DNA from: a virus
Direction: 5' to 3' (one strand)
DNA length: 64,000 nt
Virus record (IMG/VR): IMGVR_UViG_3300031603_000002
Location: 1-64,000 of that record
The position numbers were made by a program, and so were the translations under genes. Shown in pieces: positions 1,906 to 63,108 of the stretch (its first letter is position 1; each line of letters starts with the position of its first letter). Under the pieces are notes generated by a model. It worked only from the letters and a program-made list of their open reading frames with translations. It was not told the origin of the DNA and ran no database searches.

Positions 1906-3504
1906 GTGGCCCGGGCGACAGCAACCCATGCGAAGGAGATTGTTCGGTGTGGGCAAGATCCTGTTCATTTCATAAACAAATATGCAATGATCCAGACGCC
2001 TATGAAAGGCACGATCAAGTTCGACACGTACGAATTCCAGGATGAATGTGTTCAATCATTTATTGAGCATCGTTTCAATATCATTGTCAAGGCTCGTCAG
2101 CTTGGCCTTTCAACTGTCACAGCGATCTACGCAGTATGGTTGGCTATCTTCTATCGTGACAAGAACATTCTTGTCATTGCTACGAAGCTGGCGACAGCCC
2201 AGAACTTTATCAAGAAGGTGAAGGTTGCATTGGCAGCTTTGCCGAAATGGTTGGTGCTGCCATCTATAACTGAAAAAACAAAACAGATGGTCGCGTTTAG
2301 CAACGGATCACAAATTAAGGCGATTCCAACGTCAGAAGATGCGGGCCGTTCTGAAGCTTTGTCGTTGCTAATCGTTGACGAAGCTGCGTTCATCCGCGAT
2401 TTTGATACGCTGTGGACCGGCCTGTACTTTACGTTGGCGGAAGGTGGGCGTGCTATTATTATTAGCACTCCGAATGGTACGGGCGGAATGTATCATAAGC
2501 TCGTCGAAGATGCTGAAGCGGGTACAAGCGAATTCAACCTCACGAAGCTAATGTGGCACGCTCACCCGAAAAGAGACGATGCATGGTTAGAAAAAGAAGT
2601 CAAGAACATGACCCCACATGCAATTGCACAGGAATTGATGTGTGACTTTGCAGGTTCAGGAAATACGTTCGTCACTGCCGACATCATTGAGAAGCTTCGC
2701 CTACAGGTTGAACAGCCTATTGAAAGATCTGGCGTTAAAAATGAGATCTGGTGGTGGGCATATCCACAACCGGGGGAAGAGTTTGTGATCTCGGCAGACG
2801 TCTCCCGTGGTGATGCAGCAGATTATTCGTCATTCCAGATTCTAAACAAACATACAGCGGAACAGGTTTGTGAATACCGTGGGAAAATAAGACCAGATCA
2901 ATTCGGTATTTTACTTGCTGAGTACGGCAAGAGGTTCAACAACGCACTAATTTGCCCTGAAAATAACACGTTTGGACAAGGAACAATCCTAAAATTAGTT
3001 GAGCTCGGATATAAAAATCTACATTTCAAATCCCTAAAAGACAAGTTTGATTTGATGTATGGCGACCCAACAACAGCTAGTTTAGGAAAAGTTGGATTCG
3101 TAACAAGCGTAAAAACAAGAGGCCCAATCCTTAGACTGCTTGAGGAACGACTGAGAAATAATACACTGAAGGTTCGTTCGTCGCGGTTCGTCGATGAGCT
3201 AAAAACTTTCGTTATGAAGGGTGATAAGCCCAAAGCGAAAAAGGGTGCATTTGATGATGTCCTGATGGCCATGGCCATTGGAAACTCGCTGATTGAGGCC
3301 GGATCAGAACATGCTGTAACGAAGCATGACACATCGAAAGGTATGCTGGCCGGCTTTGGTGTGAACAAAAGACACAAAGACACGCAGCATGAAGTAACTA
3401 ACGTAAACAATGTCAATCCATATATGAATATGCCGAATGGTGCGTATGGAAGCAGGGGACGACCCGAACACATTCCAAAAGAGTTTTCGTGGGTGCTCGG
3501 ATAA
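1906..3504 (+). CDS. Terminase large subunit (T4 gp17-like)
   Basis: KARQLGLST Walker A, LLIVDEAAF Walker B, ISTPNG, nuclease ISADVSRG and FDDVLMA. Confidence 0.95.
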   Translation: MARATATHAKEIVRCGQDPVHFINKYAMIQTPMKGTIKFDTYEFQDECVQSFIEHRFNIIVKARQLGLSTVTAIYAVWLAIFYRDKNILVIATKLATAQNFIKKVKVALAALPKWLVLPSITEKTKQMVAFSNGSQIKAIPTSEDAGRSEALSLLIVDEAAFIRDFDTLWTGLYFTLAEGGRAIIISTPNGTGGMYHKLVEDAEAGTSEFNLTKLMWHAHPKRDDAWLEKEVKNMTPHAIAQELMCDFAGSGNTFVTADIIEKLRLQVEQPIERSGVKNEIWWWAYPQPGEEFVISADVSRGDAADYSSFQILNKHTAEQVCEYRGKIRPDQFGILLAEYGKRFNNALICPENNTFGQGTILKLVELGYKNLHFKSLKDKFDLMYGDPTTASLGKVGFVTSVKTRGPILRLLEERLRNNTLKVRSSRFVDELKTFVMKGDKPKAKKGAFDDVLMAMAIGNSLIEAGSEHAVTKHDTSKGMLAGFGVNKRHKDTQHEVTNVNNVNPYMNMPNGAYGSRGRPEHIPKEFSWVLG

Positions 3505-6624: not shown

Positions 6625-7458
6625 ATGACAAAGCACAACAAAAAACGCAATGTCGGTCTAATACACGAACAACTGATTAGATACGTTGCCAGCTCACTAA
6701 TCGCACGTGACAAGAAATCAGCAGAGAAAGCAATCGCGATTATCACGAAGCACTTCAAGCAAGACTCGGAGCTCTTCCGTGAGTTTCGACTTTTCAATGC
6801 ATTGGTAAATCTGCCGGTTGGTTCACGCCCGTTGGCCGAGCGGATTTTGTTGGAGAGCAAAAAGTCTGCGACAACACACAGCTCTCAGAAACTCCGAAAA
6901 GAGAAGTCAAGTCTAATCAAGGACATCAATCTTGGTCTATCGCAGTCCGCACGGTTTTATGACATCAAAATTGAAAGCTATAGGTTGTACGCAACCGTCC
7001 AGACAATGCTAAATGAGTGGCGCGGTGTAGATTCACTCTCCTTGACGAACAAGGCAAAGTACGAAGAGAAAATTGTGGAATGGTTGGCTCGTCCAACTAC
7101 ACAAGTTTTGAAAGAGACATTTGAGGCCGATCCGCTGGTCCGTAAGTTGATGTTTCAAAAGTTCGAAGAGAAATATAAAGAGCACCTGAGCGAACAACAA
7201 CAGACCGTTTTGGAAGCAGCAATCCTTGGTGACGAAACAAATTTTAGCAATATCATTTGTGAGATCAAGGAGAAGGCGCTTCTCACGGTTGCCGAATTCA
7301 AAAAAACATGCGACAACGATGTACTCCTTGAAAAAATCGATGGCGTGAAGAACAGAATTGAAAGATTGTCAGAAGCAAAATCTGACGACACGGTAGCCAA
7401 GACTTTACACTTGGTGCATTTACTCGATGAAATGGAGACCAAAAATGAGCAAAAGTAG
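6625..7458 (+). CDS. Conserved-looking head-module protein between portal and protease
   Basis: KHNKKRN N-terminus, helical; position only. Confidence 0.6.
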   Translation: MTKHNKKRNVGLIHEQLIRYVASSLIARDKKSAEKAIAIITKHFKQDSELFREFRLFNALVNLPVGSRPLAERILLESKKSATTHSSQKLRKEKSSLIKDINLGLSQSARFYDIKIESYRLYATVQTMLNEWRGVDSLSLTNKAKYEEKIVEWLARPTTQVLKETFEADPLVRKLMFQKFEEKYKEHLSEQQQTVLEAAILGDETNFSNIICEIKEKALLTVAEFKKTCDNDVLLEKIDGVKNRIERLSEAKSDDTVAKTLHLVHLLDEMETKNEQK

Positions 7459-8050
7459 AACGTTACTGACCGAGTGGCTGAAGTTTGATTACACGCCCGA
7501 TCAGATCAAAGAAAGCCGTGAACAACACGGCGGCAAAATTGTGATGAAGGGTATCCTGCAAAAGGCAGATACATTGAATCAAAACGGCCGTTTGTATCCA
7601 GAGTCAATTCTCTCCCGCGAGGTAAGAAATTACCAAAAGTTTATTACTGAAAATCGCGCACTCGGAGAATGTGATCATCCAGATTCATCTGTCGTTGAGC
7701 TAAAAAACTCGTCGCACATCATTCGTAAAGCGTGGATGGATGGGAAAACATGCTATGGTCTTGTTGAACTGTTAGACACGCCCATGGGAAAGATCCTGCA
7801 GAGTCTCGTTGAGTCAGGAGTCACGCTAGGCATCTCTTCACGAGGTGTCGGATCAACAAGCAGAGAAGGCGATTACGATGTTGTCCAGGACGATTTTCAA
7901 CTGATTTGTTGGGACTTCGTTAGCGAGCCATCTACACCGGGCGCTTTCATGATGAAAGAAGGCCGCGATTTCACCCGGGCGGATTTGAACCGTCACTTTA
8001 CGAAATCAGATCGTATTGATAGGGTTTTCAATGACATTTTGGAGTGGTAA
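7445..8050 (+). CDS. Prohead core protease (T4 gp21-like)
   Basis: NQNGRLYP, ALGECDHP, GISSRGVGS, WDFVSEPSTPGA. Confidence 0.93.
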   Translation: MSKSRTLLTEWLKFDYTPDQIKESREQHGGKIVMKGILQKADTLNQNGRLYPESILSREVRNYQKFITENRALGECDHPDSSVVELKNSSHIIRKAWMDGKTCYGLVELLDTPMGKILQSLVESGVTLGISSRGVGSTSREGDYDVVQDDFQLICWDFVSEPSTPGAFMMKEGRDFTRADLNRHFTKSDRIDRVFNDILEW

Positions 8051-10499: not shown

Positions 10500-12251
10500 A
10501 TGTCAACAGTATATGACGAAGCATTGCTAGACGCGCAAAAAATTCGAGATGCAGCCGAACAAGCTGCACAGGCTCGAATTATGGAAACGATAACTCCACA
10601 AATCAGGGAAATGATCAACAACAGAATTTTGTTCGAACAAGACGAAACTGATGAAGACGAAACTGATGAAGATGATGAAGGCACGATGGGTGACATGGAA
10701 GACGATTACGATCTTGAATCCATGCTCAACGGAATGCCTGATGTCGGAGTTGATTTCGAAGATGCCGCATCGCAAGAGGCAGTTACACAGGCAGGTTCTG
10801 TTTCAGTTCATGCTGCAGGCGACGTGAACATTAACGTATCGGAGTCACACGACGAAATGATGCTAGGTGAAGCCGGCGCAAACGTTCTTGCGTCCCTTAT
10901 TAATAAGGACTTCGTCGCACCGCGTCGTCTCGAAGAGAAAATCGACGACCTATCGAAGCGAGTCAAGAAACTCGGCGATGTGGTGAGCGTACTTCGAGAG
11001 AGCAAATTATCAAACGTTAAAAGAAAACGATTAGAACTAGGTTTTATGTCATGTGTTAAGGACGCGGTGTCCTTGCAGAATGAAGTAAAATCGAGTGGAA
11101 CAGGTCATCGGCGCCTTCATGCAAAGCTGAATTCTACCATTAAGGAGATGAGAGAAATGTCAAGTAAATACAAAAAGAACATTTTCGACTTTCTTTTCGA
11201 GGGCGATGACGCTGAATCGAAGAAGAAAGATGCGAACGACGCCGTGAACGAGCAGGAAGAAACTGGAGAGGACGTTGAAGTTCTTGATGGTGGTCTTGAG
11301 GATTCAGGCGAAGAATTGGATTTGGATGTCGAAGAAGAAGGCGTTCCAACAGGCGACGTTGATGTCGACGCTGCAACCTCCGCACTCCAGAGCCTCGGTT
11401 CTGCTCTTGGTCTCGACCTTGAGATTGTCGGTGAGGAAGGCGGCGGCGAAGAAGACTTCGGTGGCGAAATGGATTATGAGGAAGGTGGCGAAGAAGGATT
11501 CGACGATGTTGAAGACCTGGACGTTGACCTGGAAGAATCAGCATGGTCCGGCCTGAAAGAGTCTGATGACTTGGACGAAGTCTACGAAATCGATGAGTCG
11601 GTTCTTCGTAATGAGCTTTCACGCATGCGTCGTGGTAAGCGAGCACCAGTTCGTGAGTCCGCTGCACGTAAGAAATTGCGTCGAATGGTTCGCGAAGCTG
11701 CTGAAGATGAAGCTGACCAGTTTGGTGACGGTAAGATTCTCGGTGACGTGATTGAAATCGACGAAGACACACTGATCAACGTCCTAGCGGATGAGCTCGG
11801 TACAGTCGCTGAGGGTCGCCGACCAGCGCGTCGTCAACGACGCGCACCTCGAGGTCGCCGACCAGCACCTCGTGCTCACGCACGTGCTATGAAAGAAGCA
11901 AAGACATACAAAACTGCGGCAACCAAGTTGAAGAAACAACTGGTTGAAATGAACATGTTCAACGCGAAGCTCTTGTTTGCTAACAAGTTGCTCCAGAACA
12001 AGGGACTAACCGTAAAACAACAGCGAGCAATTGTTGAGGCGATCGATAATGCCAAGACGCTCCGTGAGGCAAAACTGCTTTACAAATCACTCTCCGAGTC
12101 ACTCACTCGTAGGGGCCAAGGTGGCGAAACACTGAGTGAAGGAAAAAGGACTCTCGGGTCGTCTTCCAGATCAACCCGGTCAGGGCAACCTGCCAAAAGT
12201 GGTGTTGATGCAGGTCGATGGGCAGTCCTAGCAGGTCTTCCCGGCAAATAA
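10500..12251 (+). CDS. Prohead scaffold/core protein (gp22-like role)
   Basis: Immediately upstream of MCP; very acidic, coiled coil, many (L/V)xE sites; ends GRWAVLAGLPGK. Confidence 0.8.
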   Translation: MSTVYDEALLDAQKIRDAAEQAAQARIMETITPQIREMINNRILFEQDETDEDETDEDDEGTMGDMEDDYDLESMLNGMPDVGVDFEDAASQEAVTQAGSVSVHAAGDVNINVSESHDEMMLGEAGANVLASLINKDFVAPRRLEEKIDDLSKRVKKLGDVVSVLRESKLSNVKRKRLELGFMSCVKDAVSLQNEVKSSGTGHRRLHAKLNSTIKEMREMSSKYKKNIFDFLFEGDDAESKKKDANDAVNEQEETGEDVEVLDGGLEDSGEELDLDVEEEGVPTGDVDVDAATSALQSLGSALGLDLEIVGEEGGGEEDFGGEMDYEEGGEEGFDDVEDLDVDLEESAWSGLKESDDLDEVYEIDESVLRNELSRMRRGKRAPVRESAARKKLRRMVREAAEDEADQFGDGKILGDVIEIDEDTLINVLADELGTVAEGRRPARRQRRAPRGRRPAPRAHARAMKEAKTYKTAATKLKKQLVEMNMFNAKLLFANKLLQNKGLTVKQQRAIVEAIDNAKTLREAKLLYKSLSESLTRRGQGGETLSEGKRTLGSSSRSTRSGQPAKSGVDAGRWAVLAGLPGK

Positions 12252-12275: not shown

Positions 12276-12282
12276 ATACTTA
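12276..12282 (+). promoter_or_regulatory. Putative late promoter motif ATA(C/T)TTA (representative copy before MCP)
   Basis: Same 7-mer lies in 16 gene-upstream positions (listed in findings). Confidence 0.7.
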
Positions 12283-14323: not shown

Positions 14324-15109
14324 ATGAGATCTTGCAAAATATGTGGAAAGGAATTTACTAGACTAGCTGCTCATGTCAATCGTTCACATAATGTTGGCTA
14401 TGAAGGATATATGTTGGAATTTGAATATAACGGAATCAATCCAAAATGCAAATGTGGTTGTGGCAACAACACTCCGTTTACACGCTCACATGGGATGGGA
14501 TTTTTAAGCTATATTCATGGGCACTCTGCCAGAATTGAAGGGCGACTGACTGCAGAATCTAAGCGCAAAATCGGCGAAAAGAACAGAAAAAATATGAAAC
14601 GGTATATGACGGAAAATCCTGAGCATGCAAAGAAAAAAGCAAAACAAATGTACTCGGCAATCATACCAGAGGTCCGTAAACGATCTGCGAAAACAAACGC
14701 GGAAAATTGGCAGAAACCGCATATGGCAGAGAAGCGAAAGGAAGCGACAATCCGTGCAATCGAACTCAGCGAGCAAGGCATCATCGGGCCGCAGGCGCCA
14801 TTCAAGACCGAGTGGAAGTTCAACCCGTTCACACAACAAAATGAGTATATGCATTCCGGCTGGGAGTCGCGGTTTCTAGACGAGTGTATCGAACAGGATG
14901 AATCAGTCACTAAAAAGCACGAAATCCGCATCCCATACAATGACCCAAACGGTGTCGAGAGAACCTACGTACCAGACTTCCTGTCAATCTCAGGCTCAAC
15001 ACTCTACGAAGTCAAGGGCCAGGAAAATGACACCGACCCGCTAAAATACCAAGCCGCCATAAGCTGGTGCTCCCAGAACGACAAGAAATTCTGCGTCATC
15101 CGGTTCTAA
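14324..15109 (+). CDS. Free-standing homing endonuclease-like protein (Zn finger, NUMOD-like linker, TnsA-like PD-(D/E)xK)
   Basis: CKIC..H...H, CKCGCG, SGWESRF, RTYVPDFL, LYEVKG. Confidence 0.75.
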   Translation: MRSCKICGKEFTRLAAHVNRSHNVGYEGYMLEFEYNGINPKCKCGCGNNTPFTRSHGMGFLSYIHGHSARIEGRLTAESKRKIGEKNRKNMKRYMTENPEHAKKKAKQMYSAIIPEVRKRSAKTNAENWQKPHMAEKRKEATIRAIELSEQGIIGPQAPFKTEWKFNPFTQQNEYMHSGWESRFLDECIEQDESVTKKHEIRIPYNDPNGVERTYVPDFLSISGSTLYEVKGQENDTDPLKYQAAISWCSQNDKKFCVIRF

Positions 15110-15115
15110 CAGATA
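15088..15115 (+). repeat. 28-bp direct repeat, copy 1
   Basis: ATTCTGCGTCATCCGGTTCTAACAGATA, identical to 15762-15789. Confidence 0.95.
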
Positions 15116-15144
15116 CCTAGTCTATACAAAGGACTGATAACAGA

Positions 15145-15762
15145 ATGAAAAACAGCCAAACATTGACACGATTCATCAACGAAACCCTTGAATCAGACGA
15201 TTATCGTGGAAGTCACCAGGCAGCAGACAGGGAAGGTGGCTGTCCGATGACAGACGTCACTAAAAATGACATTTATCCAGATGATTTCTACACATCAGTC
15301 GGCTCAACATATTACGGTGATGGCCGACGCACAGACTATCAAGTCTGGGCAATGATAAAACGTGTGCACAACAAAAAATGGGCGCAAGTCAAAGTTTATC
15401 GAGCTGTCCCGCATAAGCCGACAAATGATGAAAGAATTTCACAAATAGAAAAAGAGCAAGCAGAAATGCTAAAAACAGGCAAGCTTCCAATGCTTGCTGT
15501 AACTCCACTAAGTCAAAGCCAGTATTACAACAAAAACTACAATGAGTTAGAAACCCTGTTGAAGCAAGATGCTGATGAACCACCCCGCCCGAAACTAAAA
15601 ATAAATCCAGGCGATTGGGTCACGATTTTTAGGCCGTACGCATCAGAACACGGTCGTGCTTCGCTAAACAACGAATACAAAATATTGAGCAAGACAGTTT
15701 TTGCCCGGGACCTGTATACAGAAGGCAACAGCATGTACGAATGGGGCTGGGACCCGGATTGA
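15145..15762 (+). CDS. Putative ADP-ribosyltransferase-fold protein with leader-like N-terminus
   Basis: LTRFINE leader; VKVYRAVP, GDWVT, YEWG resemble the R..S/T..E ART pattern. Confidence 0.5.
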   Translation: MKNSQTLTRFINETLESDDYRGSHQAADREGGCPMTDVTKNDIYPDDFYTSVGSTYYGDGRRTDYQVWAMIKRVHNKKWAQVKVYRAVPHKPTNDERISQIEKEQAEMLKTGKLPMLAVTPLSQSQYYNKNYNELETLLKQDADEPPRPKLKINPGDWVTIFRPYASEHGRASLNNEYKILSKTVFARDLYTEGNSMYEWGWDPD

Positions 15763-15789
15763 TTCTGCGTCATCCGGTTCTAACAGATA
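15762..15789 (+). repeat. 28-bp direct repeat, copy 2
   Basis: Identical to 15088-15115. Confidence 0.95.
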
Positions 15790-15814
15790 TTTAGGAACAT
15801 AAGAGGCCAGTCAC

Positions 15815-16057
15815 ATGAAAATCACAAAAACACAACTCAGAAAATTGATCCGCGAACAAACTGAAGATAAGACCGATCGGGCAGAACAACTATTCAATCA
15901 ACTGGGCAAAGATGCACAAAAAGCGATAGAAAGTTTGCTGGGAAAGAAAGAGTTTTGCCAGGCAGTTGCGAAAGAGATTGAGCTCCACGGCGACCAAGCC
16001 GCGAAGCTGTCTGTAATTAGGGCAATTGCTTTGACACTAATAGGAAGGGCGCAATGA
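15815..16057 (+). CDS. MKIT-leader small protein
   Basis: MKITKTQLRKLIREQ; ATATTTA at 15787. Confidence 0.75.
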   Translation: MKITKTQLRKLIREQTEDKTDRAEQLFNQLGKDAQKAIESLLGKKEFCQAVAKEIELHGDQAAKLSVIRAIALTLIGRAQ

Positions 16058-16176
16058 AAATCACAGAATCACAACTTAGAAATATGGTCAAAGAACAGTC
16101 ACGACGCCCTCGCGTTGAAGTGAAACCCCAGCTTAACGACTACGATGAGCCTCTTCGTGGGTTACAAGCCGCATAA
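16054..16176 (+). CDS. MKIT-leader 40-aa ORF (below track cutoff), possibly frameshifted into 16145-16378
   Basis: Translated by hand: MKITESQLRNMVKEQSRRPRVEVKPQLNDYDEPLRGLQAA*; ATGA overlap with the previous stop. Confidence 0.65.
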   Translation: MKITESQLRNMVKEQSRRPRVEVKPQLNDYDEPLRGLQAA

Positions 16177-16378
16177 GTCGTATGTAAGGGTTTCACCGCC
16201 AGCACGTTTCCCATCAGAAGATTATGCAGCAGAAAGTTTGACGAATAGCGACTTCACCGTAGGCGGCACCCCGGGAACTCGTGAAGAATTCATCCAGTTC
16301 ATGGCGGCAAATGCTGGTAAGGGAATGCTAAACAAACGAGCTCCCAGGAAATACACCAACTTAGATTTCGTAACATAA
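16145..16378 (+). CDS. Hypothetical; possible 3' half of the 16054 gene
   Basis: Overlaps the 16054 ORF in +1 frame; no clear RBS. Confidence 0.4.
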   Translation: MSLFVGYKPHKSYVRVSPPARFPSEDYAAESLTNSDFTVGGTPGTREEFIQFMAANAGKGMLNKRAPRKYTNLDFVT

Positions 16379-16419
16379 TACATCTGGCTCATTCATCGTA
16401 TAATCTCTAAACGGAGGTT

Positions 16420-17124
16420 GTGATGAGCAAACCCATGTTTTTGTTGACGCTTCGCGTTGTAGGTACGGACATTGCGTACTCAACGAAGTTGCGCCCAGTG
16501 ATTAGCAATGTCAAAGCAATCGCTGAAGAAATCCGCAATATTGATTTGGAAAGATTCGTTCAAGGTGCATTGGACCACGGCGGTGGTGCCGATGAATGCG
16601 TCAAAGAATGGAACGCACAATACGCAAAAGTTTTCGGTGGCAACAATCACTGGCCAGTGGGCCATTCCTGGCCGTCACCAGATCGCGGTGATGTTGCTCA
16701 GCAGCGCGCAGAAATGTATGCTAACGAACTGACATACAAGTATGCAAAAGTATCAGGTGCTGAGAATTGGTTCGTCGTATCGACGTATATCGAGCCGTAT
16801 GCGCTGAATCCGGACTGGACAAGACGTGACTTATATGAATATGGCCACATTTTAGGTTGCGGATACAAAACTCGTGATGAAGCCTGGGAAGCCATGAAGT
16901 ATGGTAAACTCGGTGCCCCCGGTACAATCATAGAAAGAAAGGACTTGAAAGCATACACGGAATGCAAAACGCAACAAGAGTACCATAACCTGTTATGCAC
17001 GAAATTTGAAATCCCAGCGATTCCAATTGAAGAGGGTGCAGACGAGCTCATCGACAACATGATGAAGCGCCTCGGGATGAACAAGATAGAATACATAGAC
17101 GAAGACGTAGAGGAAGAAAAATGA
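16420..17124 (+). CDS. Hypothetical protein
   Basis: TATAAT at 16399-16404, GGAGG RBS. Confidence 0.65.
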   Translation: MMSKPMFLLTLRVVGTDIAYSTKLRPVISNVKAIAEEIRNIDLERFVQGALDHGGGADECVKEWNAQYAKVFGGNNHWPVGHSWPSPDRGDVAQQRAEMYANELTYKYAKVSGAENWFVVSTYIEPYALNPDWTRRDLYEYGHILGCGYKTRDEAWEAMKYGKLGAPGTIIERKDLKAYTECKTQQEYHNLLCTKFEIPAIPIEEGADELIDNMMKRLGMNKIEYIDEDVEEEK

Positions 17125-17510
17125 CACCACGAGATTTTGCATACTGGCTACAAGGCTTCTTTGAGGTTGCCGACACAGACGATGTCAAGCCTGAACAGAT
17201 AAGAATGATAAAGGAACATCTATCATTGGTGCTTACAAAAGTAACGCCGACGATGGAGGAACTCAAAGAAGAACCCAAGGTTGATTATCCGCCATTTAGG
17301 ATTTCACAGGATCCGTTTGAGGGCAACCGCTTGATTTGCTCTGCAGTCGCCGACGTAAAATCGACAACAGGACTTCCCACGGAATGGGTTGCTGCATTTC
17401 CATGGGTGAAGACAGATTCTGGCGGAAATGTGGTGAGCAACATGCAACCCTCTTCGCCAATCGGGAAATACGCCGTCGACACAGGAATAAAATGTCAACT
17501 AACATGCTAA
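17121..17510 (+). CDS. Hypothetical phage protein (MTPRDFAYWLQGFFE N-terminus)
   Basis: ATGA overlap with upstream gene; motif familiar from phage ORFs. Confidence 0.6.
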   Translation: MTPRDFAYWLQGFFEVADTDDVKPEQIRMIKEHLSLVLTKVTPTMEELKEEPKVDYPPFRISQDPFEGNRLICSAVADVKSTTGLPTEWVAAFPWVKTDSGGNVVSNMQPSSPIGKYAVDTGIKCQLTC

Positions 17511-18181
17511 ATGAAGATAACAAGGATGATGTTACGGTGACGCAAGAGGTGTTAAGTAAGAAACATCAGCACCTAATCAGCAAATGGAGCCGCACGCAAA
17601 TCCTGGATAATTTGTCCCAGGAAAAAGCCCTCAATTACGCAATCCTTTTTGAGAACCAATCGAATCTTATTATGGGACAGGTTGCTGACATGCACTCGAG
17701 GCATCGATCCTGCCCACGCTGGTGGACACAGGAAGCGTTTGATTTGGCACAACAGAATGTTTTCCAATTGATTAGACGAGTTTTTGACGGTGTCGATTTT
17801 GAATGGAAAGCAATGGAGACTCCGTATAATGAAGCTGCCGGTTGCGCCGAGACATCAAAACTAAGGACGAGGTTCTCTGTGTACGATTATGAACTCGCGG
17901 TGGCAAACGAAAAATTCAGTCGTATGGACGGTCACTTGATTTGGTTTATAAACATGGCTGATCAGTTCGTCGAAGAATTCAATCACATTGTACTTCAGGA
18001 TAAAACGACGCTCGCGACCTATAAGAACTACGACGGCCCAGTAATAAGGCATATTCATACACCATTTCAGGCCGGAAGCATTTCTTATTCGGATTTCTTC
18101 CCACCGGAAAAACGAAACAAAATCTACGGCACCATGTGGCGAGGAATCACAGCTCCTGCAAAAAAAGTTGAGCTCGTGTAA
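17492..18181 (+). CDS. Truncated, diverged MCP paralogue (N-arm/P-domain core)
   Basis: LISKWSRTQIL, FQLIRRVFDG, AETSKLRTRFS, GTMWRG align in order to MCP motifs. Confidence 0.75.
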   Translation: MSTNMLNEDNKDDVTVTQEVLSKKHQHLISKWSRTQILDNLSQEKALNYAILFENQSNLIMGQVADMHSRHRSCPRWWTQEAFDLAQQNVFQLIRRVFDGVDFEWKAMETPYNEAAGCAETSKLRTRFSVYDYELAVANEKFSRMDGHLIWFINMADQFVEEFNHIVLQDKTTLATYKNYDGPVIRHIHTPFQAGSISYSDFFPPEKRNKIYGTMWRGITAPAKKVELV

Positions 18182-18330
18182 GTTTCGTGCTGGTATGATA
18201 AAATATACTCATAAAGCACCCGTCATGATATTTATGATCACGGCAGGTTGGTCACGCGACAATATCTTGTGCTCTGCTTAGGTAACCTACCAACGACGTG
18301 TTTAGAGCGTACAGAAGAGGACACAGGTAC

Positions 18331-20204: not shown

Positions 20205-20711
20205 ATGATAAAACCATATCCAGCTCCAGAACCCACAGTCATGAGGAAAATTCTTGATGGGAACCGACCGGCTGATTATGTCACATATTGGCATCGAATG
20301 CCGGGAAGGTATGTTTTGAAAGAGACAGGCGAGGATTGCGGAGATGAGGAAACACGCCCGCTATTTTATGGCACGGTGACAGAGTGGTATTCGCTTTTAG
20401 GCGAGGCAGTCTACGATGCTTGGTCGAAAATAACAGATAAGGGCCTTACAGGGATGACGTCAGGAATCATCGTGTCCAAGGATATTCAAACAGTCCTTGA
20501 GACAACGCATTGGTACCGCGGAATATATCATTACTGTAGTTGTTGCACAGCCAAAACTGAGTGGCCAGTGATTGGAGTGATTGACGGGATCCCCGTCTAC
20601 GCCAGCGATGAAGTAGGAAAAAAGGTCGTTGTGTTCATGACGGGTTGCGAGAAGTGTGATCTTGAAGCCATCGCCGAGGTAAGAATTAAGGGAATGAGTA
20701 GGATCAGCTAA
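20205..20711 (+). CDS. Stand-alone paralogue of the MCP C-terminal (A-domain) region
   Basis: YWHRMPGRYVLKETG / FYGTVTEWYSLL / IIVSKDIQTVLE versus MCP YWSRSPGKFLNKQTG / FTGTVREWYETL / IVVGPDVATIFE. Confidence 0.8.
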   Translation: MIKPYPAPEPTVMRKILDGNRPADYVTYWHRMPGRYVLKETGEDCGDEETRPLFYGTVTEWYSLLGEAVYDAWSKITDKGLTGMTSGIIVSKDIQTVLETTHWYRGIYHYCSCCTAKTEWPVIGVIDGIPVYASDEVGKKVVVFMTGCEKCDLEAIAEVRIKGMSRIS

Positions 20712-22582: not shown

Positions 22583-23752
22583 ATGGCGAGTTTCCTAAAT
22601 ACACTAAACCCAACACCGTACGGCATCTTCGATGCTGACTTAGCATTTCAAAGTGAAGCTGACAGCCTCATTCTGTTTGTTAAGCGAAAGCTCGGTGATG
22701 ATGTCCTTAGCGTTGAACTAACGAAAAAAATGATTTGGATGTGCCTGGAAGAGTCACTCTTCGAGTACGGAAAAATTGTAAATGAGTATCAAGCCAAAAG
22801 TCAATTGACAAACTTCTTGGGTATTTCTACGGGTTCGCTGGAAGGTGAGGAACAGAAATACTCCCGCGAAACCTTGGAATTCTTTCTCAGGAAAGCAGAG
22901 CCGTACGCAATGCAGGCTGGTTTGGGTGGTTCATATAACGCAGCATCCGGCTCAATCACATTAGTGAAAGGCCAGCAAGACTACAATATCTATGAGACAC
23001 TCAACGACGCTGCTGGTGATCCACTCGTCGATTCCAGCCTCAATAAGACTGGCGGCAAAATGAAAATCATGGAAGTGTTTCATTTCAACCCACATGCAGC
23101 GTATCGTTTTTTCAACCAGTCATCTGCAACAAATTACCTGGCCAATGAGTTCTCGTTCGAATCTTTCACCCCGGAGACCGTTTTTTACGTGTTGCCTGTA
23201 TTTGAGGACATTTTACGAGGCGGAATGCTTGATTTGTCGAACAGGGTTAGACGATCAAACTACACGTACAAAATTGTAGGCCAAAACATTCGAATATTTC
23301 CTGTACCGTCATCATATGATCCACAGAAGTTGTGGATGAGGGTGATGTTTGAACCTGATCCGACGGATCCAGATATCAATGATCCGTCGATTTATGGCGT
23401 TTCAAACCTATCAAACATTCCGTTTGGCAACATTCAATTCTCTAAAATCAATTCGATTGGTCGTCAATGGGTCCGTCAATATGCCATGGCACTTGCAATG
23501 GAGCTGTTGGGGTGGATTCGTACAAAATTCGCGTCGGTCCCGATTCCTGGCGGCGATCTTAGTCTCAACGGCCAGGAGTTGCTAACACACGGCAGGGAAG
23601 ACCAAGAGAAACTGCAAACATCATTACGAGAAATGCTAGAGTCAACGACATACGAAAAGCTTGTAGAGGTTGAAGCAGCAGCTGTCGAGAGTCTACAAAA
23701 AATATTACGAAGCATCCCAACTCCAAATGGGCGCGCGATTTTCATAGGGTAG
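22583..23752 (+). CDS. Neck protein (gp13-like)
   Basis: KRKLGDDVLSVEL, WVRQYAMALAMELLGWIRTKF...PGGDLSLNG. Confidence 0.8.
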   Translation: MASFLNTLNPTPYGIFDADLAFQSEADSLILFVKRKLGDDVLSVELTKKMIWMCLEESLFEYGKIVNEYQAKSQLTNFLGISTGSLEGEEQKYSRETLEFFLRKAEPYAMQAGLGGSYNAASGSITLVKGQQDYNIYETLNDAAGDPLVDSSLNKTGGKMKIMEVFHFNPHAAYRFFNQSSATNYLANEFSFESFTPETVFYVLPVFEDILRGGMLDLSNRVRRSNYTYKIVGQNIRIFPVPSSYDPQKLWMRVMFEPDPTDPDINDPSIYGVSNLSNIPFGNIQFSKINSIGRQWVRQYAMALAMELLGWIRTKFASVPIPGGDLSLNGQELLTHGREDQEKLQTSLREMLESTTYEKLVEVEAAAVESLQKILRSIPTPNGRAIFIG

Positions 23753-25782: not shown

Positions 25783-28700
25783 ATGGCTGAGCAAACATTT
25801 CGATCTCCTGGATTTTTCGACCAGGAAATAGACCTATCGGGTCAGCAGGTTGCGCCCTCTGGCGTGCCAGCCGGTGTTGTCGGCACATCTGAGAAGGGAC
25901 CGGCATTCGTTCCGGTCACTGTCGGATCATTCGCTGATTTCGAAACAAAATTTGGGACACTCAACGCAAAACGTTTTGGCCCATACGCTGTTAAGCAATG
26001 GCTTGACAACAGGAACGCACTCACGTACGTAAGATTACTCGGCGCCGGTGCAAATGAGACTGCAACTGATATTTCAAACACCCGAGGGTCAGGAATTGTC
26101 AAGAACGCAGGATTCAGAATCACAGGTAGCGATTCTTTGAACACGGAACTACCGGGTAGCCAAGGGCTTGTCCAGTTTATTGTGGCTCGCCATGATGCGG
26201 TGGCAAACGATGAAACAAACGGCTACCCGATGTTTACTGATAACAGTAGCATCAACAACGCATCATCTATGAATCTCGTTCGTGGAGCAGTTTTGCTCGC
26301 GACGGGCACACGAATGATGGCGTTAGACAACACCGGTACGTATGCAGATCAATCTGCCGCCGGATACAACTCCGCAGTGGTCGGTTCGGTACCATCGAGC
26401 CCACTAACACAAAACAAGTACTTCAAGCTTGTTCTTAGTTCGTCATCTGGAAAAGATTGGTCATATGACGAAGGTTATGATGGCATCAAAATCCTTACGG
26501 CATCACTTGACCCGCACGATGCGAACTACATTGGCAAGATTTTGAACACCGACCCGCTGAAATTTCAAGAGGAGGAGCACCTGCTTTACCTCGATTTTGC
26601 AGTTGAGCATGCACTCGCTCCTGTGATTTCATCTGTTGTACCAACAGTCGCGCTGGTATCAGGTTCTGAAAATAAGAGCACCTCAGCAGGAACCCCTATC
26701 GGGTTTATGCAATTGTACGGGCGGTATGACACACGATACCAGACGCCACGCACAACGAATTTCATCTCGCAGCCATACGGTGATGCGGAGTACGATTTGT
26801 TCAGTTTCGAAACGATTGATGATGGTGTTTACGCCAATGAGAAATTCAAGGTTTCAATCGCTGGTCTTCGTGCGAGCACAAACGAAAAACAGCCACACGG
26901 TCTGTTTGAAGTGCAAATCAGGTCATTCGAGGACAGCGATGGTAATTCGGCAATACTTGAAAGGTACCCGAATTGCTCACTCGATCCCAACTCTGATCGA
27001 TATGTGGCTCGCCTAGTCGGCGATAAAAAGGTTCGATTTGATTGGGACCAGGAATCACCAGATGAGCGTCGCCTCGTTGTGACAGGAAAGTACCCGAACG
27101 TTTCACAGCGTGTTCGAATCGTAATGAACGAGCAAGTTGAACTTGAAAAGGTTCCAAAGACTTCGCTGCCATTCGGTTTCAGGGGGCTTCCTGTTATCAA
27201 GACAACTGACACATTGACAGACGATGCCACGGCACTTCTCGGTCTCAATGGTGAGGTTATTGGTGGTGCAGAAAGGCGCCGCCTCGGTGTTTACCACACG
27301 TCTGGTACATCGGTAATGGCAACCACAGGTTCTATTGTTCCACCACTTCCTTTCCGAGTGAAAGTAACGAAGGGTGCAGTTCAAGGTGTGAGCCCAACAT
27401 TCCTAGGCGATCCAGGTAGCACAGAACGTGTTGATGGTCGATTATACTGGGGTGTGAAGACTGATCCGTTGCCTGTTTCGTCAAGTAACGATTCAACACT
27501 CGGCATCGCTGATGCGGTCCTTCGCTCAAACGAGGGTGCAGGAATCAATCCACTCGTCAGAACATACACGAAGTTCCAAGGCATCACGAAGATGGACAGT
27601 TTGGTCACAGGATCCGGCGCCGACTTCTTTAATGACAACAAATTCACGTTGGCACGAGTTGCTCTATATAATGCTGCAACTCAGCTTTCTGATGTGACAA
27701 CCCAGGTCACCGGTACAGCACGAGAGCACATGCTCCAGGCTGCATACGTAAGAAATGGTCGTCCGAACCCATCCACATACACCGTCACAGACGGCGCAAG
27801 GACAGGAAGAATCACAATGGCGTCGCTGATTGCAACATCATCAGCGCTGTTCAATCGTTTCACTGAGTATCACAAGTTCACTAACGTGTTCTACGGCGGA
27901 TTTGACGGAACAAATATTCTCGACGAAGACCAAGGATACTTCAGGGATAAAGCGTTGTCGTCTGACACCGGTGGTAAAGCCCAGAAATCTCCAGTCGCTT
28001 CTGATCGAATCGGTCTTGCATTGATTGGAACAGACAACCAGGCTGGTGGAGGTCGACTAAACAACAACGTTGCGTCGATTCGAACAGCCGTTGACATCAT
28101 CACGAACCCTGTTTCATCACGAATCAACCTTTTGGCAATTCCTGGTGTCCGTGAGCCATTCGTAACGGATCATGCATCTGACGCTGTAAAGTCATACGGT
28201 CTTGCGCTGTATGTTATGGATGCAGTGGAATTCGATAAGAATTCGAACCGATTGTACGACGATTCTGAAGCTAACTCTGATGTCACCAAGACAATCGACC
28301 AGTTTGAAACACGTGCAATTGATAACAACTACGTCGCGACATACTTCCCAGATGTTACAATCGAAGATAACGTGAACAACCGCGTCGTCCAGGTTCCGCC
28401 GTCTGTTGCTGCAATGGGTGCGCTAGGTTTCAACGACCGTGTCCAACAGGTTTGGTTTGCTCCGGCAGGCTTCAACCGTGGAGCGCTAGGCTTCGTGAAG
28501 AATGTAGAGAATAGGTTGTCGGCAAAGGATAGGGATTCCCTGTACGATGCGAAAATCAACCCAATCGCAACATTCCCGCGAGCTGGCTATGTAATCTTTG
28601 GACAGAAAACACTGCAGGTTGCACAAACGGCACTGAACAGAATCAACACAAGAAGGATGTTGATTGACGTAAAACGAAGGATTCGTTCCATCGCTCAAGG

Positions 28701-28950
28701 TTTGGCATTCGAACAGAATGACGCGACGACTCGAAAGAAGTTCTCCGCTGACTCAATTCGTGAGCTAACATACGTGCAGGCAAGACAGGGAATCGAAGCA
28801 TTCCAGGTTACTTGTGATGAAAGCAATAATACAACTGCGGAGATTAACCAGAACAAGCTTCGTGGTCAAATCAAAGTGAAGCCCACCCGAGCGATTGAGT
28901 TCATCTCGGTTGACTTCATTATTACAAACAATGGCGTAAGTTTTGAATAA
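25783..28950 (+). CDS. Tail sheath protein 1
   Basis: SPGFFDQEIDLS, KGPAFVP, WFAPAGFNRG, INPIATFP, GQKTLQ. Confidence 0.93.
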   Translation: MAEQTFRSPGFFDQEIDLSGQQVAPSGVPAGVVGTSEKGPAFVPVTVGSFADFETKFGTLNAKRFGPYAVKQWLDNRNALTYVRLLGAGANETATDISNTRGSGIVKNAGFRITGSDSLNTELPGSQGLVQFIVARHDAVANDETNGYPMFTDNSSINNASSMNLVRGAVLLATGTRMMALDNTGTYADQSAAGYNSAVVGSVPSSPLTQNKYFKLVLSSSSGKDWSYDEGYDGIKILTASLDPHDANYIGKILNTDPLKFQEEEHLLYLDFAVEHALAPVISSVVPTVALVSGSENKSTSAGTPIGFMQLYGRYDTRYQTPRTTNFISQPYGDAEYDLFSFETIDDGVYANEKFKVSIAGLRASTNEKQPHGLFEVQIRSFEDSDGNSAILERYPNCSLDPNSDRYVARLVGDKKVRFDWDQESPDERRLVVTGKYPNVSQRVRIVMNEQVELEKVPKTSLPFGFRGLPVIKTTDTLTDDATALLGLNGEVIGGAERRRLGVYHTSGTSVMATTGSIVPPLPFRVKVTKGAVQGVSPTFLGDPGSTERVDGRLYWGVKTDPLPVSSSNDSTLGIADAVLRSNEGAGINPLVRTYTKFQGITKMDSLVTGSGADFFNDNKFTLARVALYNAATQLSDVTTQVTGTAREHMLQAAYVRNGRPNPSTYTVTDGARTGRITMASLIATSSALFNRFTEYHKFTNVFYGGFDGTNILDEDQGYFRDKALSSDTGGKAQKSPVASDRIGLALIGTDNQAGGGRLNNNVASIRTAVDIITNPVSSRINLLAIPGVREPFVTDHASDAVKSYGLALYVMDAVEFDKNSNRLYDDSEANSDVTKTIDQFETRAIDNNYVATYFPDVTIEDNVNNRVVQVPPSVAAMGALGFNDRVQQVWFAPAGFNRGALGFVKNVENRLSAKDRDSLYDAKINPIATFPRAGYVIFGQKTLQVAQTALNRINTRRMLIDVKRRIRSIAQGLAFEQNDATTRKKFSADSIRELTYVQARQGIEAFQVTCDESNNTTAEINQNKLRGQIKVKPTRAIEFISVDFIITNNGVSFE

Positions 28951-28976
28951 GACGATACGTAAAGGTAGGAGATAAA

Positions 28977-31900
28977 ATGGCAGAATTCACTTTTCCAGTT
29001 AGTCCGGGTGTAGTGGCGAATGAAATTGACCTTTCAGGACCCACGCAGGTTTCTCCCTCTGGAATTCCTGCAGGTGTTGTAGGAACATCAGTAAGAGGGC
29101 CTGCATTCGTTCCAGTAACTATGGCAACATTTCAAGACTTTATTTCAACATTTGGAAATAGCGACGGCACAAAATTCGGACCGATCGCCATGCGTGAATG
29201 GCTGAGAAATGCCGGTTCAGGTGTGTTTGTTCGTGTCCTTGGCGCCGGTGACGGTTCTGCAAGGCTCTCGACAGGTAACAATCAGGGTAGGGTAACCAAC
29301 GCAGGATTTGTTGTTGGCGAGCGTCTTGTTCAGCCAAACGGTTTAGTTGGTAACAACTCTAAGACCGGCGCTGAGAACTTGCCAGGCGGTGCGCTCGGGC
29401 GTTCATACATGCTGGCAGCTATTATGTCTGAGTCAAACGGTTCAACATACCTTAGCGACGCCGGCATCCAGAAGAACGTCAATGCAACCCCGGTTCTTCG
29501 TGGTATGCTAATGGCGCCTTCTGGTGTTATCCCAGCATTGAGTCACTCACTTGATCCTGCTGGTAACATGGCACCAGCAGCAAACGAAGCATCATACCCA
29601 ACATTCGGTGCAGCCGGAGTTGGCAACGCTGGAGGAAATATTGGTAGCGTTGATGTTAGTAACTCGAAGCAGGAGTTCGTTCTCCTGTTTAACGGTCACA
29701 AAAACAATGCAACATACAAGAATGTTGTTACGGCATCATTCGACCCAAGCGTCCCGAATTATTTTGTGAACGTGCTCAACACGGACCCACTGAAAATCGA
29801 AGATGCTGGACATTATCTATACACGCATTACGACATCGATCCAGCTCTCGCAGTTGCAACCGGTACAAACGTGATCAACCCAACAGTCTGGTTCACAAAC
29901 CATGAGCCCGTTGCTTTACTTTTAACTTCGACCCTAAATCGGGACGTAGGTTCTGCGACATCAGCAACGACCGTCGGCGTACCCAACTTCGAGAACTTCG
30001 AGGATAGGTTTGAGGCAGCATTCAGTCCATTTGTTGTATCACAGAAATTCGGTGGTGCAAACAAGGACTTGTTCAGGTTAACGACATTGTCTGACGGTAT
30101 CATCGGGGCCGGCGAAGTCAAGGTTACAATTGAAAACATCGCGGCTTCATCGAAGGCAAACAACAAGTACGGCACTTTCGATGTGCTGATTCGACGTTTC
30201 ACAGACAACGATTTGAACCCAGCAATCCTGGAATCATTCAGGGGCTTGAGTCTTGATCTATCGTCTGACAACTACGTTGCAAAACGAATCGGTGACCAGC
30301 GAACATACTTCGACTTCGAAGCTGCGACAGGAAATCAAAAGATTGTTGTTGAAGGTGATTACCCAAGCGTTTCAAACTACGTTAGAGTGACACTGAGCAG
30401 CGACTTGAAGAATGACCGATTGGACCCAACGGCGTTGCCAACAGGATTCCGCGGCCTCCATCACTTGGTGACATCTGGCACAACAATCGCAGGAACAGCA
30501 GGCTCAATCCTAACAGGAAGCTTTGCGACATTGCGAGGTTCGGTATCCGCCAGCATTTCATCTGATGTGCTCAAGCGGGTTGTCCAGCCTCCTGTCCCAA
30601 TGCGTGAGTCGATCTCTACAGGCGCATCCCCAAAGAAAAATGTTCAGCAGTCATTCACGTGGGGAATCCAATTCGAAACGAAAACAAGCGTTTCACTTCC
30701 TAACAAGAATGAAAAACTGGATGCATCATTGCTATCTTTCACGAGGTACTTCCCGAAATTCCACACAAGCTGGCAGAACCCACTAGTCGGTGATAATGCT
30801 GGAGCGGCGGACGTGGGCGGAACGATTTTCGATGCTGACCGTTTCAACAATAACTTCTTCTCTCTTGAGAGGGTACAGGTTATTACTGGATCGAACGACA
30901 GACCAGACCCACAACAGTGGGCAGCAGCTTCGTATCGTCGAAACGGAACGCAGGCTTCGGTATTGGATGACCGTGATGGAACCTCGAAGACCAACGTTCG
31001 ATTCTTGGATTCGACAAAGGACTTTGCACACATTCCAAGCCAGAAATACTTGAAGTTCACATTCCCGCTTCAGGGTGGATATGACGGAACCAATGTATTT
31101 GACTCTGCAAAATCAAAGTTCACCGATACAGCGGTTCGCCGTGAAATGGATGACGCAACCTTACAGGGCGGAAAGAACGGACCAACCGTTGCTGCATTGC
31201 GAAAGGCAGTCGACGTGATGGAAGCAAAACAGGACGTCGACATTCAGTTGCTGGCGATCCCTGGCTTGCGCCACTCATCTATAACTGACTACGCGATTGA
31301 ATCAGTCGAACGACGATTTGATGCGTTGTATGTAATGGATATCGAGGAAAAGGATGAAGTCAATACATTTGTAACATCATCTGCTCAGGTAATCAGTGTG
31401 ACGAATACTGTCAACACTTTCCAGTCGAGAGCTTTGGATTCATCGTTTGCGGCGGCATACTTCCCAGACGTGGTGATTCAGGACGTTGCAACCAAGACGA
31501 ACGTGAAAGCACCGTCTTCGGCTGTTGTTCTTGGTGCAATGGCATTGAATGACGCAATTGGTCATCCTTGGTTCGCACCTGCAGGCTTCTCACGAGGTGC
31601 TTTGCAGAGCGCACTGTACCCAACAGTTGAGCTCCTGCAATCAAATCGAGATGCACTTTACAGTGCTGACGTTAACCCAATCATTGGCGATGTGCAGGCA
31701 AATTCTGGAGTAACCGTATTCGGCCAGAAAACATTGCTTGCAGCACAAAGTGCACTCGACCGTGTGAACGTCCGACGTTTGCTAATCGACATTCGTAGAA
31801 AGGTCCGAGATGTGGCACGAACATTCTTGTTTGAGCCAAACCAGGCATCCACGATCGCATCGTTTGAAGCGAGGGTGCAGCCAATCTTGGCAGCTGTCCA

Positions 31901-61260: not shown

Positions 61261-61466
61261 GACCACCTGTTTGCGATAAATGCGAACTGATTATGCAACC
61301 AACGACTGATCAGACATCCCCTGATATTCATCATTATGTCTGCCCAAAATGCACGACCCAAAACTGTCACACGTTCAGCAATCGACCAATACTAACACGT
61401 CAAAACTATCGTAAGATTGTGGCTGACACGTTCCACTTTCTGGAGAAGCATGCTGAAGGAAAATGA
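61254..61466 (+). CDS. Small zinc-ribbon protein
   Basis: CDKC...CPKC; AAGGAG RBS. Confidence 0.6.
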   Translation: MLGPPVCDKCELIMQPTTDQTSPDIHHYVCPKCTTQNCHTFSNRPILTRQNYRKIVADTFHFLEKHAEGK

Positions 61467-61782
61467 GTGCCTCGAGGAAGATGAGTTCAAAACCGGAGAT
61501 TTGATTTGGACGATAGGAATCAATTCACCGTATATGCAGTATACATCGTTTTCGGCCTTACTCATTGATGCTGAAAACAAAATATTACTTTTCGAGTGCA
61601 AGAAAAAGAAATGGAAAAACCGATTCTACAAAACAGAACAGGAAGCAAAAGACGCGGTCGATGCTAAGCGTCGGAGTATGTATATGAGTGCCAAAGACAT
61701 ATGTTCTGTTCAGCCTATGACATTACCCAAGAGTGAAATATTTCACCTCCCATATGAATACAAATACAACGAGGATGACTAA
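61450..61782 (+). CDS. Small protein ending in an MCP-derived (Gol-region) peptide
   Basis: AKDICSVQPMTLPKSEIFHLPYEY versus MCP ANDLVSIQPMSLPSGLLFYMDYTY. Confidence 0.7.
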   Translation: MLKENECLEEDEFKTGDLIWTIGINSPYMQYTSFSALLIDAENKILLFECKKKKWKNRFYKTEQEAKDAVDAKRRSMYMSAKDICSVQPMTLPKSEIFHLPYEYKYNEDD

Positions 61783-62074
61783 AGTGCAAAAGTTCTATAC
61801 GGTATGGGAAAACACGAATCCTGATGAACTCGAAGACAGCATTATGTCTATCATTTCATATAAAACGCAGACTGAAGTTGCCCAACTGCGAAAACAATCG
61901 CCGAGAGCGGTCAGCAACAGGCATTGTGAAGCCGATTGGTATTTCAGGCCAGTCGCACCAGATGATGAAACAATCGCCGAAATGTTCGGGGATAATTGGA
62001 AATATGAAACAGCTGCCGGCTTTAAGACCGACGAGGCTTTCACAGAGTGGAATAGGGGAAAAGAATGTTTGTAA
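61775..62074 (+). CDS. Hypothetical protein
   Basis: Probable start MTKVQK. Confidence 0.5.
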   Translation: MTKVQKFYTVWENTNPDELEDSIMSIISYKTQTEVAQLRKQSPRAVSNRHCEADWYFRPVAPDDETIAEMFGDNWKYETAAGFKTDEAFTEWNRGKECL

Positions 62075-62691: not shown

Positions 62692-63108
62692 ATGGATATC
62701 CCCGGGTTTGAAATTAAGGTAAACGTTCCGCCAAAGCCTCGAAAGCTAAGAACGAAATGGGCCAGCGAACCAATCACGGACACACCCGAGGGGCTATCAG
62801 AAACTCTGAAAAAAGATACTATAAGAGATATAATATCTCAACAGATAGCTGACGAAATTGATGCTGAGATTGCAGCTGATTTCGCTGAAAAACTTGGTAC
62901 ACTCCACGTGCGATTTGAGGTCGTCCCGAGAAAGGGTATGATGGTGAATTACTGCCATCCTATGAACGAAGAGAAGATGCCAGGATTGATTCTGCGCGAA
63001 TGGGATCCAAACGTCAAGAACTCTGGACAAATCCTGCTTGGTGGTGGAACCAAATTCGCTTTCGCAAGTGATGACAACGCTGAGCAATGGTTCGAGGAAG
63101 TTAAATGA
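62692..63108 (+). CDS. Fusion of MCP spine-helix fragment and small beta-barrel domain
   Basis: RKLRTKW...IISQQIADEIDAEI versus MCP RKLRARW...ILSEQIAMELDREI. Confidence 0.7.
   Translation: MDIPGFEIKVNVPPKPRKLRTKWASEPITDTPEGLSETLKKDTIRDIISQQIADEIDAEIAADFAEKLGTLHVRFEVVPRKGMMVNYCHPMNEEKMPGLILREWDPNVKNSGQILLGGGTKFAFASDDNAEQWFEEVK

Follow-up and report, generated by a model that had tools for sequence, protein, structure and literature searches.

What is a gene that retains only parts of a major capsid protein (MCP) doing in the head module of a phage that also encodes the whole protein? The question is raised by the open reading frame (ORF) at positions 17492-18181 of IMG/VR virus record IMGVR_UViG_3300031603_000002, of which positions 1 to 64,000 were analysed (the window). 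The window covers the first 64 kb of a viral contig of 96.6 kb with a CheckV completeness of 28%, and is therefore a piece of a huge phage genome. A relative of 318 kb (G001, 93% complete) has the same gene order. Pfam and PHROG assignments show a T4-type late module in the window, and the phage itself is huge, uncultured and T4-like. The ORF lies within the head module, between the MCP gene and the genes for the neck adaptor and sheath. A preliminary description, made from the sequence alone, had termed it a mini-capsid paralogue that keeps the N-arm and P-domain core of the MCP, and had taken it to be a selected, folded module rather than debris. The alignments presented here indicate that this ORF, referred to as the mini gene, is a domain-reduced descendant of a gp23-type MCP.

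The ORF was found as described, with 229 amino acids (aa) against the 628 of the MCP. Its ATG at 17492 follows a Shine-Dalgarno-like sequence (Table 1) and the gene overlaps the preceding ORF (17121-17510) by 19 nucleotides (nt). The orthologue in G001 (P0004, L008:8001-8690) is also 229 aa long, contains no stop, and aligns without gaps to the protein of the window (P0001) at 75% identity. Between the two, the Nei-Gojobori ratio of nonsynonymous to synonymous substitution rates (dN/dS) is 0.11 at a dS of ~1.5, and the proportion of nonsynonymous differences (pN) is below that of synonymous differences (pS) in the annotated frame only. Along the protein, dN/dS falls from 0.40 (aa 1-20) to 0.03 (aa 21-112) and then rises to 0.15 (aa 113-175) and 0.17 (aa 176-229). 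The mini gene is under purifying selection, and this is strongest at its MCP-like N-terminus.

Further members of the family were sought in 5.8 billion clustered proteins, with a full HMMER pass over 1.84 billion representatives. These protein searches gave only three, P0004, P0008 (205 aa, 48% identical) and P0009 (175 aa, ~29-30% identical), and a profile search of G001 added a second paralogue, P0013 (176 aa, E 1.9e-14). P0013 is encoded at L101:5568-6098 on the minus strand, corresponding to G001:C1:~303.6-304.1 kb, and the equivalent region is not on the contig of the window. All five known members are intact, with identities down to 24-31%; frameshifts or stops in homologues, which had been named beforehand as a sign of debris, were seen in none of them. 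Together with the low dN/dS and the absence of indels relative to the orthologue, this upholds the view of a selected gene. None of the five members has a Pfam or PHROG match, and for P0001, P0004, P0008 and P0009 no match to PF07068 or a PHROG was obtained even at E <= 1. There was no match in a tblastn search of the mini protein against 50,697 phage records or in a megablast search with the mini locus, no usable match in the ESM Atlas, and nothing below E 0.37 when PDB sequences were searched with the family profile.

Homology to the MCP is clearest at the N-terminus. BLASTP aligned aa 21-101 with MCP residues 18-95 (E 4e-8), and hhalign of the mini-family profile against a profile of 78 MCPs extended from aa 2 to beyond aa 102 (E 1.3e-11, probability 97%). 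The family hidden Markov model (HMM) matches the N-terminus of every MCP across 80 related loci. The pairings of LISKWSRTQIL, ILFENQ and LIRRVFDG with the MCP that had first been read by eye are thus robust, and the extreme N-termini also correspond (MSTNMLNE in the mini protein, MSTFNLE in the MCP). When the mini family was aligned jointly with 47 MCPs, the invariant columns were K31, W32, T35, L38, E54, Q56, F83, R95, R96, L124, R125, S129 and N209. The motifs that are invariant in the 47 MCPs (KW..T..L, E.Q, RR and LR...S) are equally invariant in the mini family, which implies a common binding partner. The homologous propeptide and N-arm that mark a gp23-family MCP, with their KW..T..L, E.Q and RR motifs, are therefore present in the mini protein.

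Two further blocks follow in the same order as in the MCP. For the strand and spine-helix region, a Smith-Waterman alignment of P0001 aa 119-175 with MCP 382-436 scored 50 (z 4.7, 0/500 shuffles), and P0009, the most divergent member, aligned ungapped with MCP 381-425 at a score of 62 (z 7.0, 0/500 shuffles). MAFFT placed the block at the same MCP position in 3/3 modes. The block was not significant for P0004 or P0008 taken singly and was marginal by hhalign (7/100 column shuffles), yet the two shuffle tests support the pairing of the stretch from AETSKLRTRFS to MADQFVEEF with the MCP. The tail is weaker. With four members the HTPF/YAPY and GTMWRG/GVMTRYG pairings of the preliminary description were not significant (21/100 shuffles; pairwise p 0.2-0.4), but they were weakly reproduced once P0013 was added, when the best match of the tail profile was MCP 576-610 (score 21, E 0.015, 1/100 shuffles). 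P0013 acts as a bridge here, as its own tail aligns to MCP 586-610. This block is weak, colinear and probably real. A pairing of RNKIYGTM with RNDFYGTV, given by pairwise alignment, is probably spurious, the profile alignment favouring GTMWRG/GVMTRYG.

Table 1. Coordinates of the mini gene, its blocks and the other features of the window referred to in the text.
Feature	Position	Strand	Basis or remark
Mini gene, 229 aa (P0001), domain-reduced derivative of the MCP by alignment	17492..18181	+	ORF, translation, G001 orthologue
Shine-Dalgarno-like AGGAA, 5-9 nt before the ATG	17483..17487	+	Read from the sequence
Mini aa 2-112, equivalent of MCP propeptide and N-arm (MCP 5-109), most constrained part	17495..17827	+	hhalign, BLASTP, dN/dS 0.03 over aa 21-112
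Mini aa 117-175, equivalent of strand and spine-helix region (MCP 381-436)	17840..18016	+	Smith-Waterman, MAFFT
Mini aa 186-218, probable equivalent of C-terminal P-domain segment (MCP 576-610), weak	18047..18145	+	hhalign, five-member alignment A4
gp23-family MCP, parent-type gene, 628 aa	12303..14189	+	PF07068 1.5e-77, PHROG 138; aligns to T4 gp23 structures 5vf3, 6uzc, 7vrt
MCP-fragment gene, 168 aa: A-domain piece (MCP ~425-525), then conserved Cys cluster	20205..20711	+	BLASTP vs MCP 442-522 E 7e-16; MCP HMM 1.2e-15; alignment A3
MCP-fragment gene, 121 aa: C-terminal tail copies conserved N-arm/Gol-equivalent stretch (MCP ~87-117)	61417..61782	+	PF07068 1.2e-5, profile positions 6-47; translation; 72% in G001
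MCP-fragment gene, 138 aa: N-terminus copies MCP ~370-432; directly 3' of ClpP-type protease gene	62692..63108	+	PF07068 2e-3; tblastn to G001 MCP 1.7e-4; BLASTP to MCPs 6e-5; orthologue 69% identical
ATATTTA, candidate late-promoter motif	15787..15793	+	Heads uninterrupted plus-strand ORF run 15815-18181 ending with the mini gene
Large terminase	1906-3504		
Portal, 1020 aa	3557-6619	+	
gp21-like prohead protease	7427-8050		
583-aa ORF	10500-12251		
Head-tail adaptor	22583-23752		
Sheath	25783-28950		

No counterpart of MCP residues ~110-380, 437-575 and 611-628 was found in the mini protein. These gaps were mapped onto domains using a HMMER alignment of the MCP with T4 gp23 and the published domain description of gp23 (PMC9546572), that is, through two alignments and no structural superposition. 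On this mapping the first gap would comprise the insertion domain (I-domain), its two linkers, which in gp23 are the functional equivalent of the HK97 E-loop (PMC9546572), and the adjoining strands. The second would be the A-domain and the third the part after the AP linker. The loss of the insertion and the A-domain region is thereby borne out. As the gap positions match the domains of gp23, the deletions are roughly domain-wise. Robust N-terminal homology stops at the equivalent of T4 gp23 L106, the first ordered residue in the unexpanded head (PMC9546572).

The complete HK97 fold (N-arm, E-loop or I-domain linkers, P-domain and A-domain) is not present in the mini protein, and an N-arm with a spine helix and two strands is not expected to hold together on its own. 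AlphaFold2 gave a mean predicted local distance difference test (pLDDT) score of 45 with the family alignment (four members) and 46 with a 51-row alignment that included MCPs. In the latter only aa 21-60, two helices, reached 70-79, and aa 147-175 were modelled as a long helix that does not pack confidently. A Foldseek search of the mini model against the PDB returned only noise (E > 2) and no HK97-fold match. The idea of a folded module was thus not sustained, and an unfolded prediction, the outcome that had been named as speaking against it, was in part obtained. The low-confidence model fits a protein that is ordered only on its partner, and is not proof of disorder.

The mini gene does not stand alone as the term 'mini-capsid' had suggested. 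At least four MCP-fragment genes, the mini gene included, are present in the window, and all have counterparts conserved in G001. The orthologue of the A-domain piece (20205-20711) in G001 is 85% identical, with a dN/dS of 0.09, and the C-terminal half of this ORF has no significant similarity to the MCP. The ORF is located between two minus-strand ORFs and encodes five conserved cysteines (C111, C113, C114, C148 and C151), which are perhaps a metal site. The other two fragment genes emerged when the contig was scanned with PF07068. Between them is a ClpP-type protease gene (62065-62688; PF00574 1.5e-25), a second protease beside the gp21-like one, and the arrangement is kept in G001. That genome also has yet another small ORF with a piece of the MCP (578-600). 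Among the 80 related loci, small MCP-like ORFs are confined to the lineage of the window.

In phylogenetic trees the mini clade and the A-domain-piece clade are each sister to the whole clade of 78 MCPs, on long stems and with weak support for their placement. As both fall outside the 78-MCP clade they are not recent copies of the resident MCP, and such an origin was rejected for the mini gene. Duplication of the capsid gene does occur among related phages. MCPs with 60-92% identity are present on at least 80 IMG/VR contigs, and two of the related contigs have tandem full-length MCP genes, L044:9965-13867 (copies 88% identical) and L083:7825-11914 (76%). These are independent, recent duplications within the clade, and recurrent whole-gene tandem duplication is therefore a plausible source of the fragment genes. 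No second full-length MCP paralogue was found in the 93% complete G001. The closest MCPs in public phage records, at 48-49% identity, are those of a 484-kb uncultured phage and Flavobacterium phage immuto.

The local setting bears on when the mini gene may be expressed. The motif ATA(C/T)TTA is enriched in the window, with 20 sites against 9.7 +/- 3.4 expected, a count reached in 0/100 shuffles. Sites precede the MCP, adaptor, sheath and other structural genes by 15-100 nt (e.g. at 12276, 15787, 22560, 25736 and 36827). The motif is a candidate late promoter, distinct from the T4 late promoter TATAAATA, which was tried and rejected as it showed no enrichment. As the copy at 15787 heads the ORF run that ends with the mini gene, and the next is at 18228 with none between 15793 and 18228, the mini gene is probably transcribed with the late genes. 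A leader of the form MKITxxxLxxLIxE opens seven ORFs in the window, at 15815, 18331, 32327, 32546 and 32806 on the plus strand and at 53686 and 53985 on the minus strand, whose sequences are unrelated thereafter. Two of them, 15815 and 18331, are on either side of the mini gene. The leader, near-identical in the seven ORFs, is a candidate capsid-targeting or protease-cleavage signal; it recalls the capsid-targeting sequences of T4, which are cleaved after Glu (PMC3012670).

What the mini protein does may be approached from what it has kept. With the contacts of the A-domain and E-loop gone, it would be unable to tile into capsomers. As the region retained is the N-terminal one, under the tightest constraint and with the residues that are invariant in MCPs, the protein most likely binds a partner of the MCP N-terminus. 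In T4 the N-terminal region of gp23 lies inside the immature shell, probably touching the gp22 core, and holds the head-length mutations A66D, A94V and G97S; its first 65 residues are cut off by gp21, the prohead protease (PMC9546572). The reading favoured here, tentatively and at somewhat short of an even chance, is that the mini protein is an accessory prohead or capsid-interior protein that docks through its MCP-type N-terminus. It would be made late, together with the leader-bearing head cargo, and would dock on the partner of the MCP N-terminus, which could be the scaffold core, the protease or both. Its P-domain remnant would possibly lie against the MCP shell, and the protein would then be either packaged or turned over at maturation.

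This role is preferred because of the late, head-module setting of the gene. A conserved I-L-x-E-N motif in the family is, with the gene position, a hint toward a prohead core component, and the jumbo phage phiKZ, in which eight minor proteins line the capsid interior (PMC13250141), provides a precedent. Helices without a confident tertiary fold, as predicted by AlphaFold, are expected of a partner-dependent piece and were counted in its favour. Several observations weigh against an accessory role in the head. The mini protein does not have the MKITxxxLxxLIxE leader of the putative cargo, and the I/L-x-E site at the position of the likely maturation cut of the MCP is not conserved in its family. 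P0013 is located outside the head module, with a homing endonuclease, a PurZ/adenylosuccinate-synthetase-like gene, NAMPT and a NUDIX/cytidyltransferase-like gene as neighbours. The mini gene is absent from 78/80 related MCP loci, and no mini-type gene was found in four other partial genomes of the clade; it is therefore not required for building this type of capsid. It also evolves faster than the core head genes, which are 92-98% identical between the window and G001 compared with 75% for the mini protein.

An unlikely alternative, that of an immune decoy or sponge, draws on the same patchy distribution and faster evolution, on the existence of several fragment genes and on the position of P0013 outside the structural genes, near NAMPT and the NUDIX/cytidyltransferase-like gene. 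Here the MCP-fragment proteins would imitate surfaces or peptides of the MCP and occupy host sensors or factors (Lit/Gol-EF-Tu-like, CapRel-like or MCP-sensing Avs) without triggering them. The at least four fragment genes of the window, with more in the genome pair, each hold a different piece of the MCP. In two of them the piece is appended as a tail to a small, unrelated domain, and one tail copies the stretch equivalent to Gol, the peptide of gp23 through which EF-Tu is bound and Lit activated (PMC3014915). However, a mimic of an activating ligand would be expected to set off the sensor itself, except where its binding fails to activate. The mini protein, unlike P0005, has also lost most of the Gol core (VQPM..P.G), and its gene sits in the head module. 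Avs proteins that sense the MCP have been reported, which speaks for a decoy, but they recognise folded core folds (bioRxiv 10.64898/2026.01.04.697583), and the mini protein is not predicted to form one. The literature searched describes no phage decoy derived from the phage's own MCP. A broader version is that huge T4-like phages keep a toolkit cut from their own MCP, here the N-arm/P-domain mini protein, the A-domain piece and the peptides on small carrier domains, with which they mimic the capsid protein to blind sensors or to control assembly in trans; the mini protein would then be the mimic of the N-terminus that binds the scaffold or a host factor. This generalisation is possible and is regarded as doubtful.

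The constraint on the N-terminus could also be explained if it engaged a host factor of the nascent MCP, such as GroEL or EF-Tu, and primed or titrated that factor for the abundant 628-aa MCP. Fused to other proteins, the N-terminus of T4 gp23 brings them to GroEL (PMC3012670), the ~100 N-terminal residues of gp23, the first quarter of the protein, bind EF-Tu through the Gol region (PMC3014915), and no Cpn10-type co-chaperonin was found in G000 or G001. Such a folding or translation helper is nevertheless improbable, being an extrapolation from T4 and Escherichia coli that leaves the retention of the spine helix and P-domain tail unexplained, for a gene that is missing in most relatives with the same MCP. 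Similarly low in probability is a capsid paralogue in two pieces, in which the mini protein would supply the N-arm and P-domain elements and the 20205-20711 product the A-domain of a reduced HK97-like subunit for a special capsid position. The parts are complementary (MCP 5-109, 381-436 and 576-610 against ~425-525 and beyond), and the genes, 2 kb apart and both conserved in G001, branch at the same place on long stems as sisters to the 78-MCP clade. G001 moreover has no second full-length paralogue, while its relatives repeatedly duplicate the MCP. Yet neither piece has the E-loop or I-domain linkers by which subunits are tied together, and the presence of the P-domain tail in the mini protein shows that this is not a simple linear split. 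Members of the mini family diverge to 48% and ~29% identity, whereas the A-domain piece yielded none but close relatives (80-89%), and its C-terminal half has no significant similarity to the MCP. Finally, a decaying, functionless remnant of a duplicated MCP gene would be in keeping with the tandem duplications in the clade (L044 88%, L083 76%), with the endonuclease-like genes downstream of the MCP and with the lack of a confident fold. This is disfavoured as highly improbable, given a dN/dS of 0.11 at a dS of ~1.5 with no indel or stop, five intact members down to 24-31% identity, and a start codon with a ribosome-binding site and the geometry of translational coupling.

The MCP gene is followed by a stretch of accessory genes before the head-tail adaptor. 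Directly 3' of it, at 14324-15762 on the plus strand, are a TnsA/restriction-endonuclease-like ORF (261 aa) and an ORF with a match to a ParB C-terminal domain (205 aa), which resemble mobile or accessory genes inserted into the head module. Upstream, the 583-aa ORF was considered as a diverged vertex paralogue and rejected, as it has no similarity to the MCP. In the portal ORF, residues ~130-285 match HNH endonuclease families and residues 583-850 the portal family, consistent with a possible endonuclease-like insertion or fusion. The region 25783-32060 on the plus strand holds two neighbouring, very long ORFs of 1055 and 1027 aa, and the C-terminal third of the first matches tail sheath families.

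Among known systems, a first comparison is with the N-terminal region (the cleaved 65-residue piece and aa 66-105) and the P-domain of T4 gp23 (PF07068; PDB 5vf3, 6uzc, 7vrt). Homology of the mini protein to the resident gp23-type MCP covers its N-terminal ~110 residues and the spine-helix region, and probably extends to the P-domain strands at the C-terminus. It is, however, without the E-loop-equivalent linkers, insertion domain and A-domain, is not recognised by the Pfam Gp23 model and has no predicted HK97 fold. Capsid-protein paralogues are known as whole subunits, such as the vertex protein gp24. Like T4 gp24, a whole-length gp23 paralogue (PDB 1yue), the mini gene is a second MCP-descended gene downstream of the MCP in the head module; gp24, however, is a complete HK97-fold subunit that forms pentamers, whereas the mini protein, at 229 aa, is without the domains for capsomer contacts and is not a full-length vertex paralogue of the gp24 type. 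With the prohead core and internal proteins of T4 (gp22, gp67, gp68 and IPI-III with their capsid-targeting sequence) and the interior minor capsid proteins of phiKZ it would share recruitment into the prohead interior, proposed here to occur via a core-binding N-terminal region (PMC9546572; PMC13250141), as well as a place in the head module, flanked by leader-bearing ORFs. It has no sequence relation to these proteins and carries the MCP's own N-terminus in place of a short leader, and its role is putative. Genes in pieces in T4-like phages, such as the split topoisomerase genes 39/60 (PMC3014915), are likewise fragments of one ancestral protein kept as separate conserved genes near mobile-element-like genes, but here there is no linear split, large parts are deleted and any association of the pieces would be hypothetical.

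A conserved gene with only the scaffold-facing N-terminus and P-domain elements of an MCP has no described counterpart in Pfam, PHROGs, PDB sequences, the 50,697 phage records or the literature searched. If the mini protein is an assembly accessory, it would be a clue to the recruitment of additional interior proteins by very large T4-type heads, and a natural probe for the binding partner of the gp23 N-terminus. If it is instead a mimic directed against host factors or sensors, counter-defence would gain a new class, one that stems from a structural protein.

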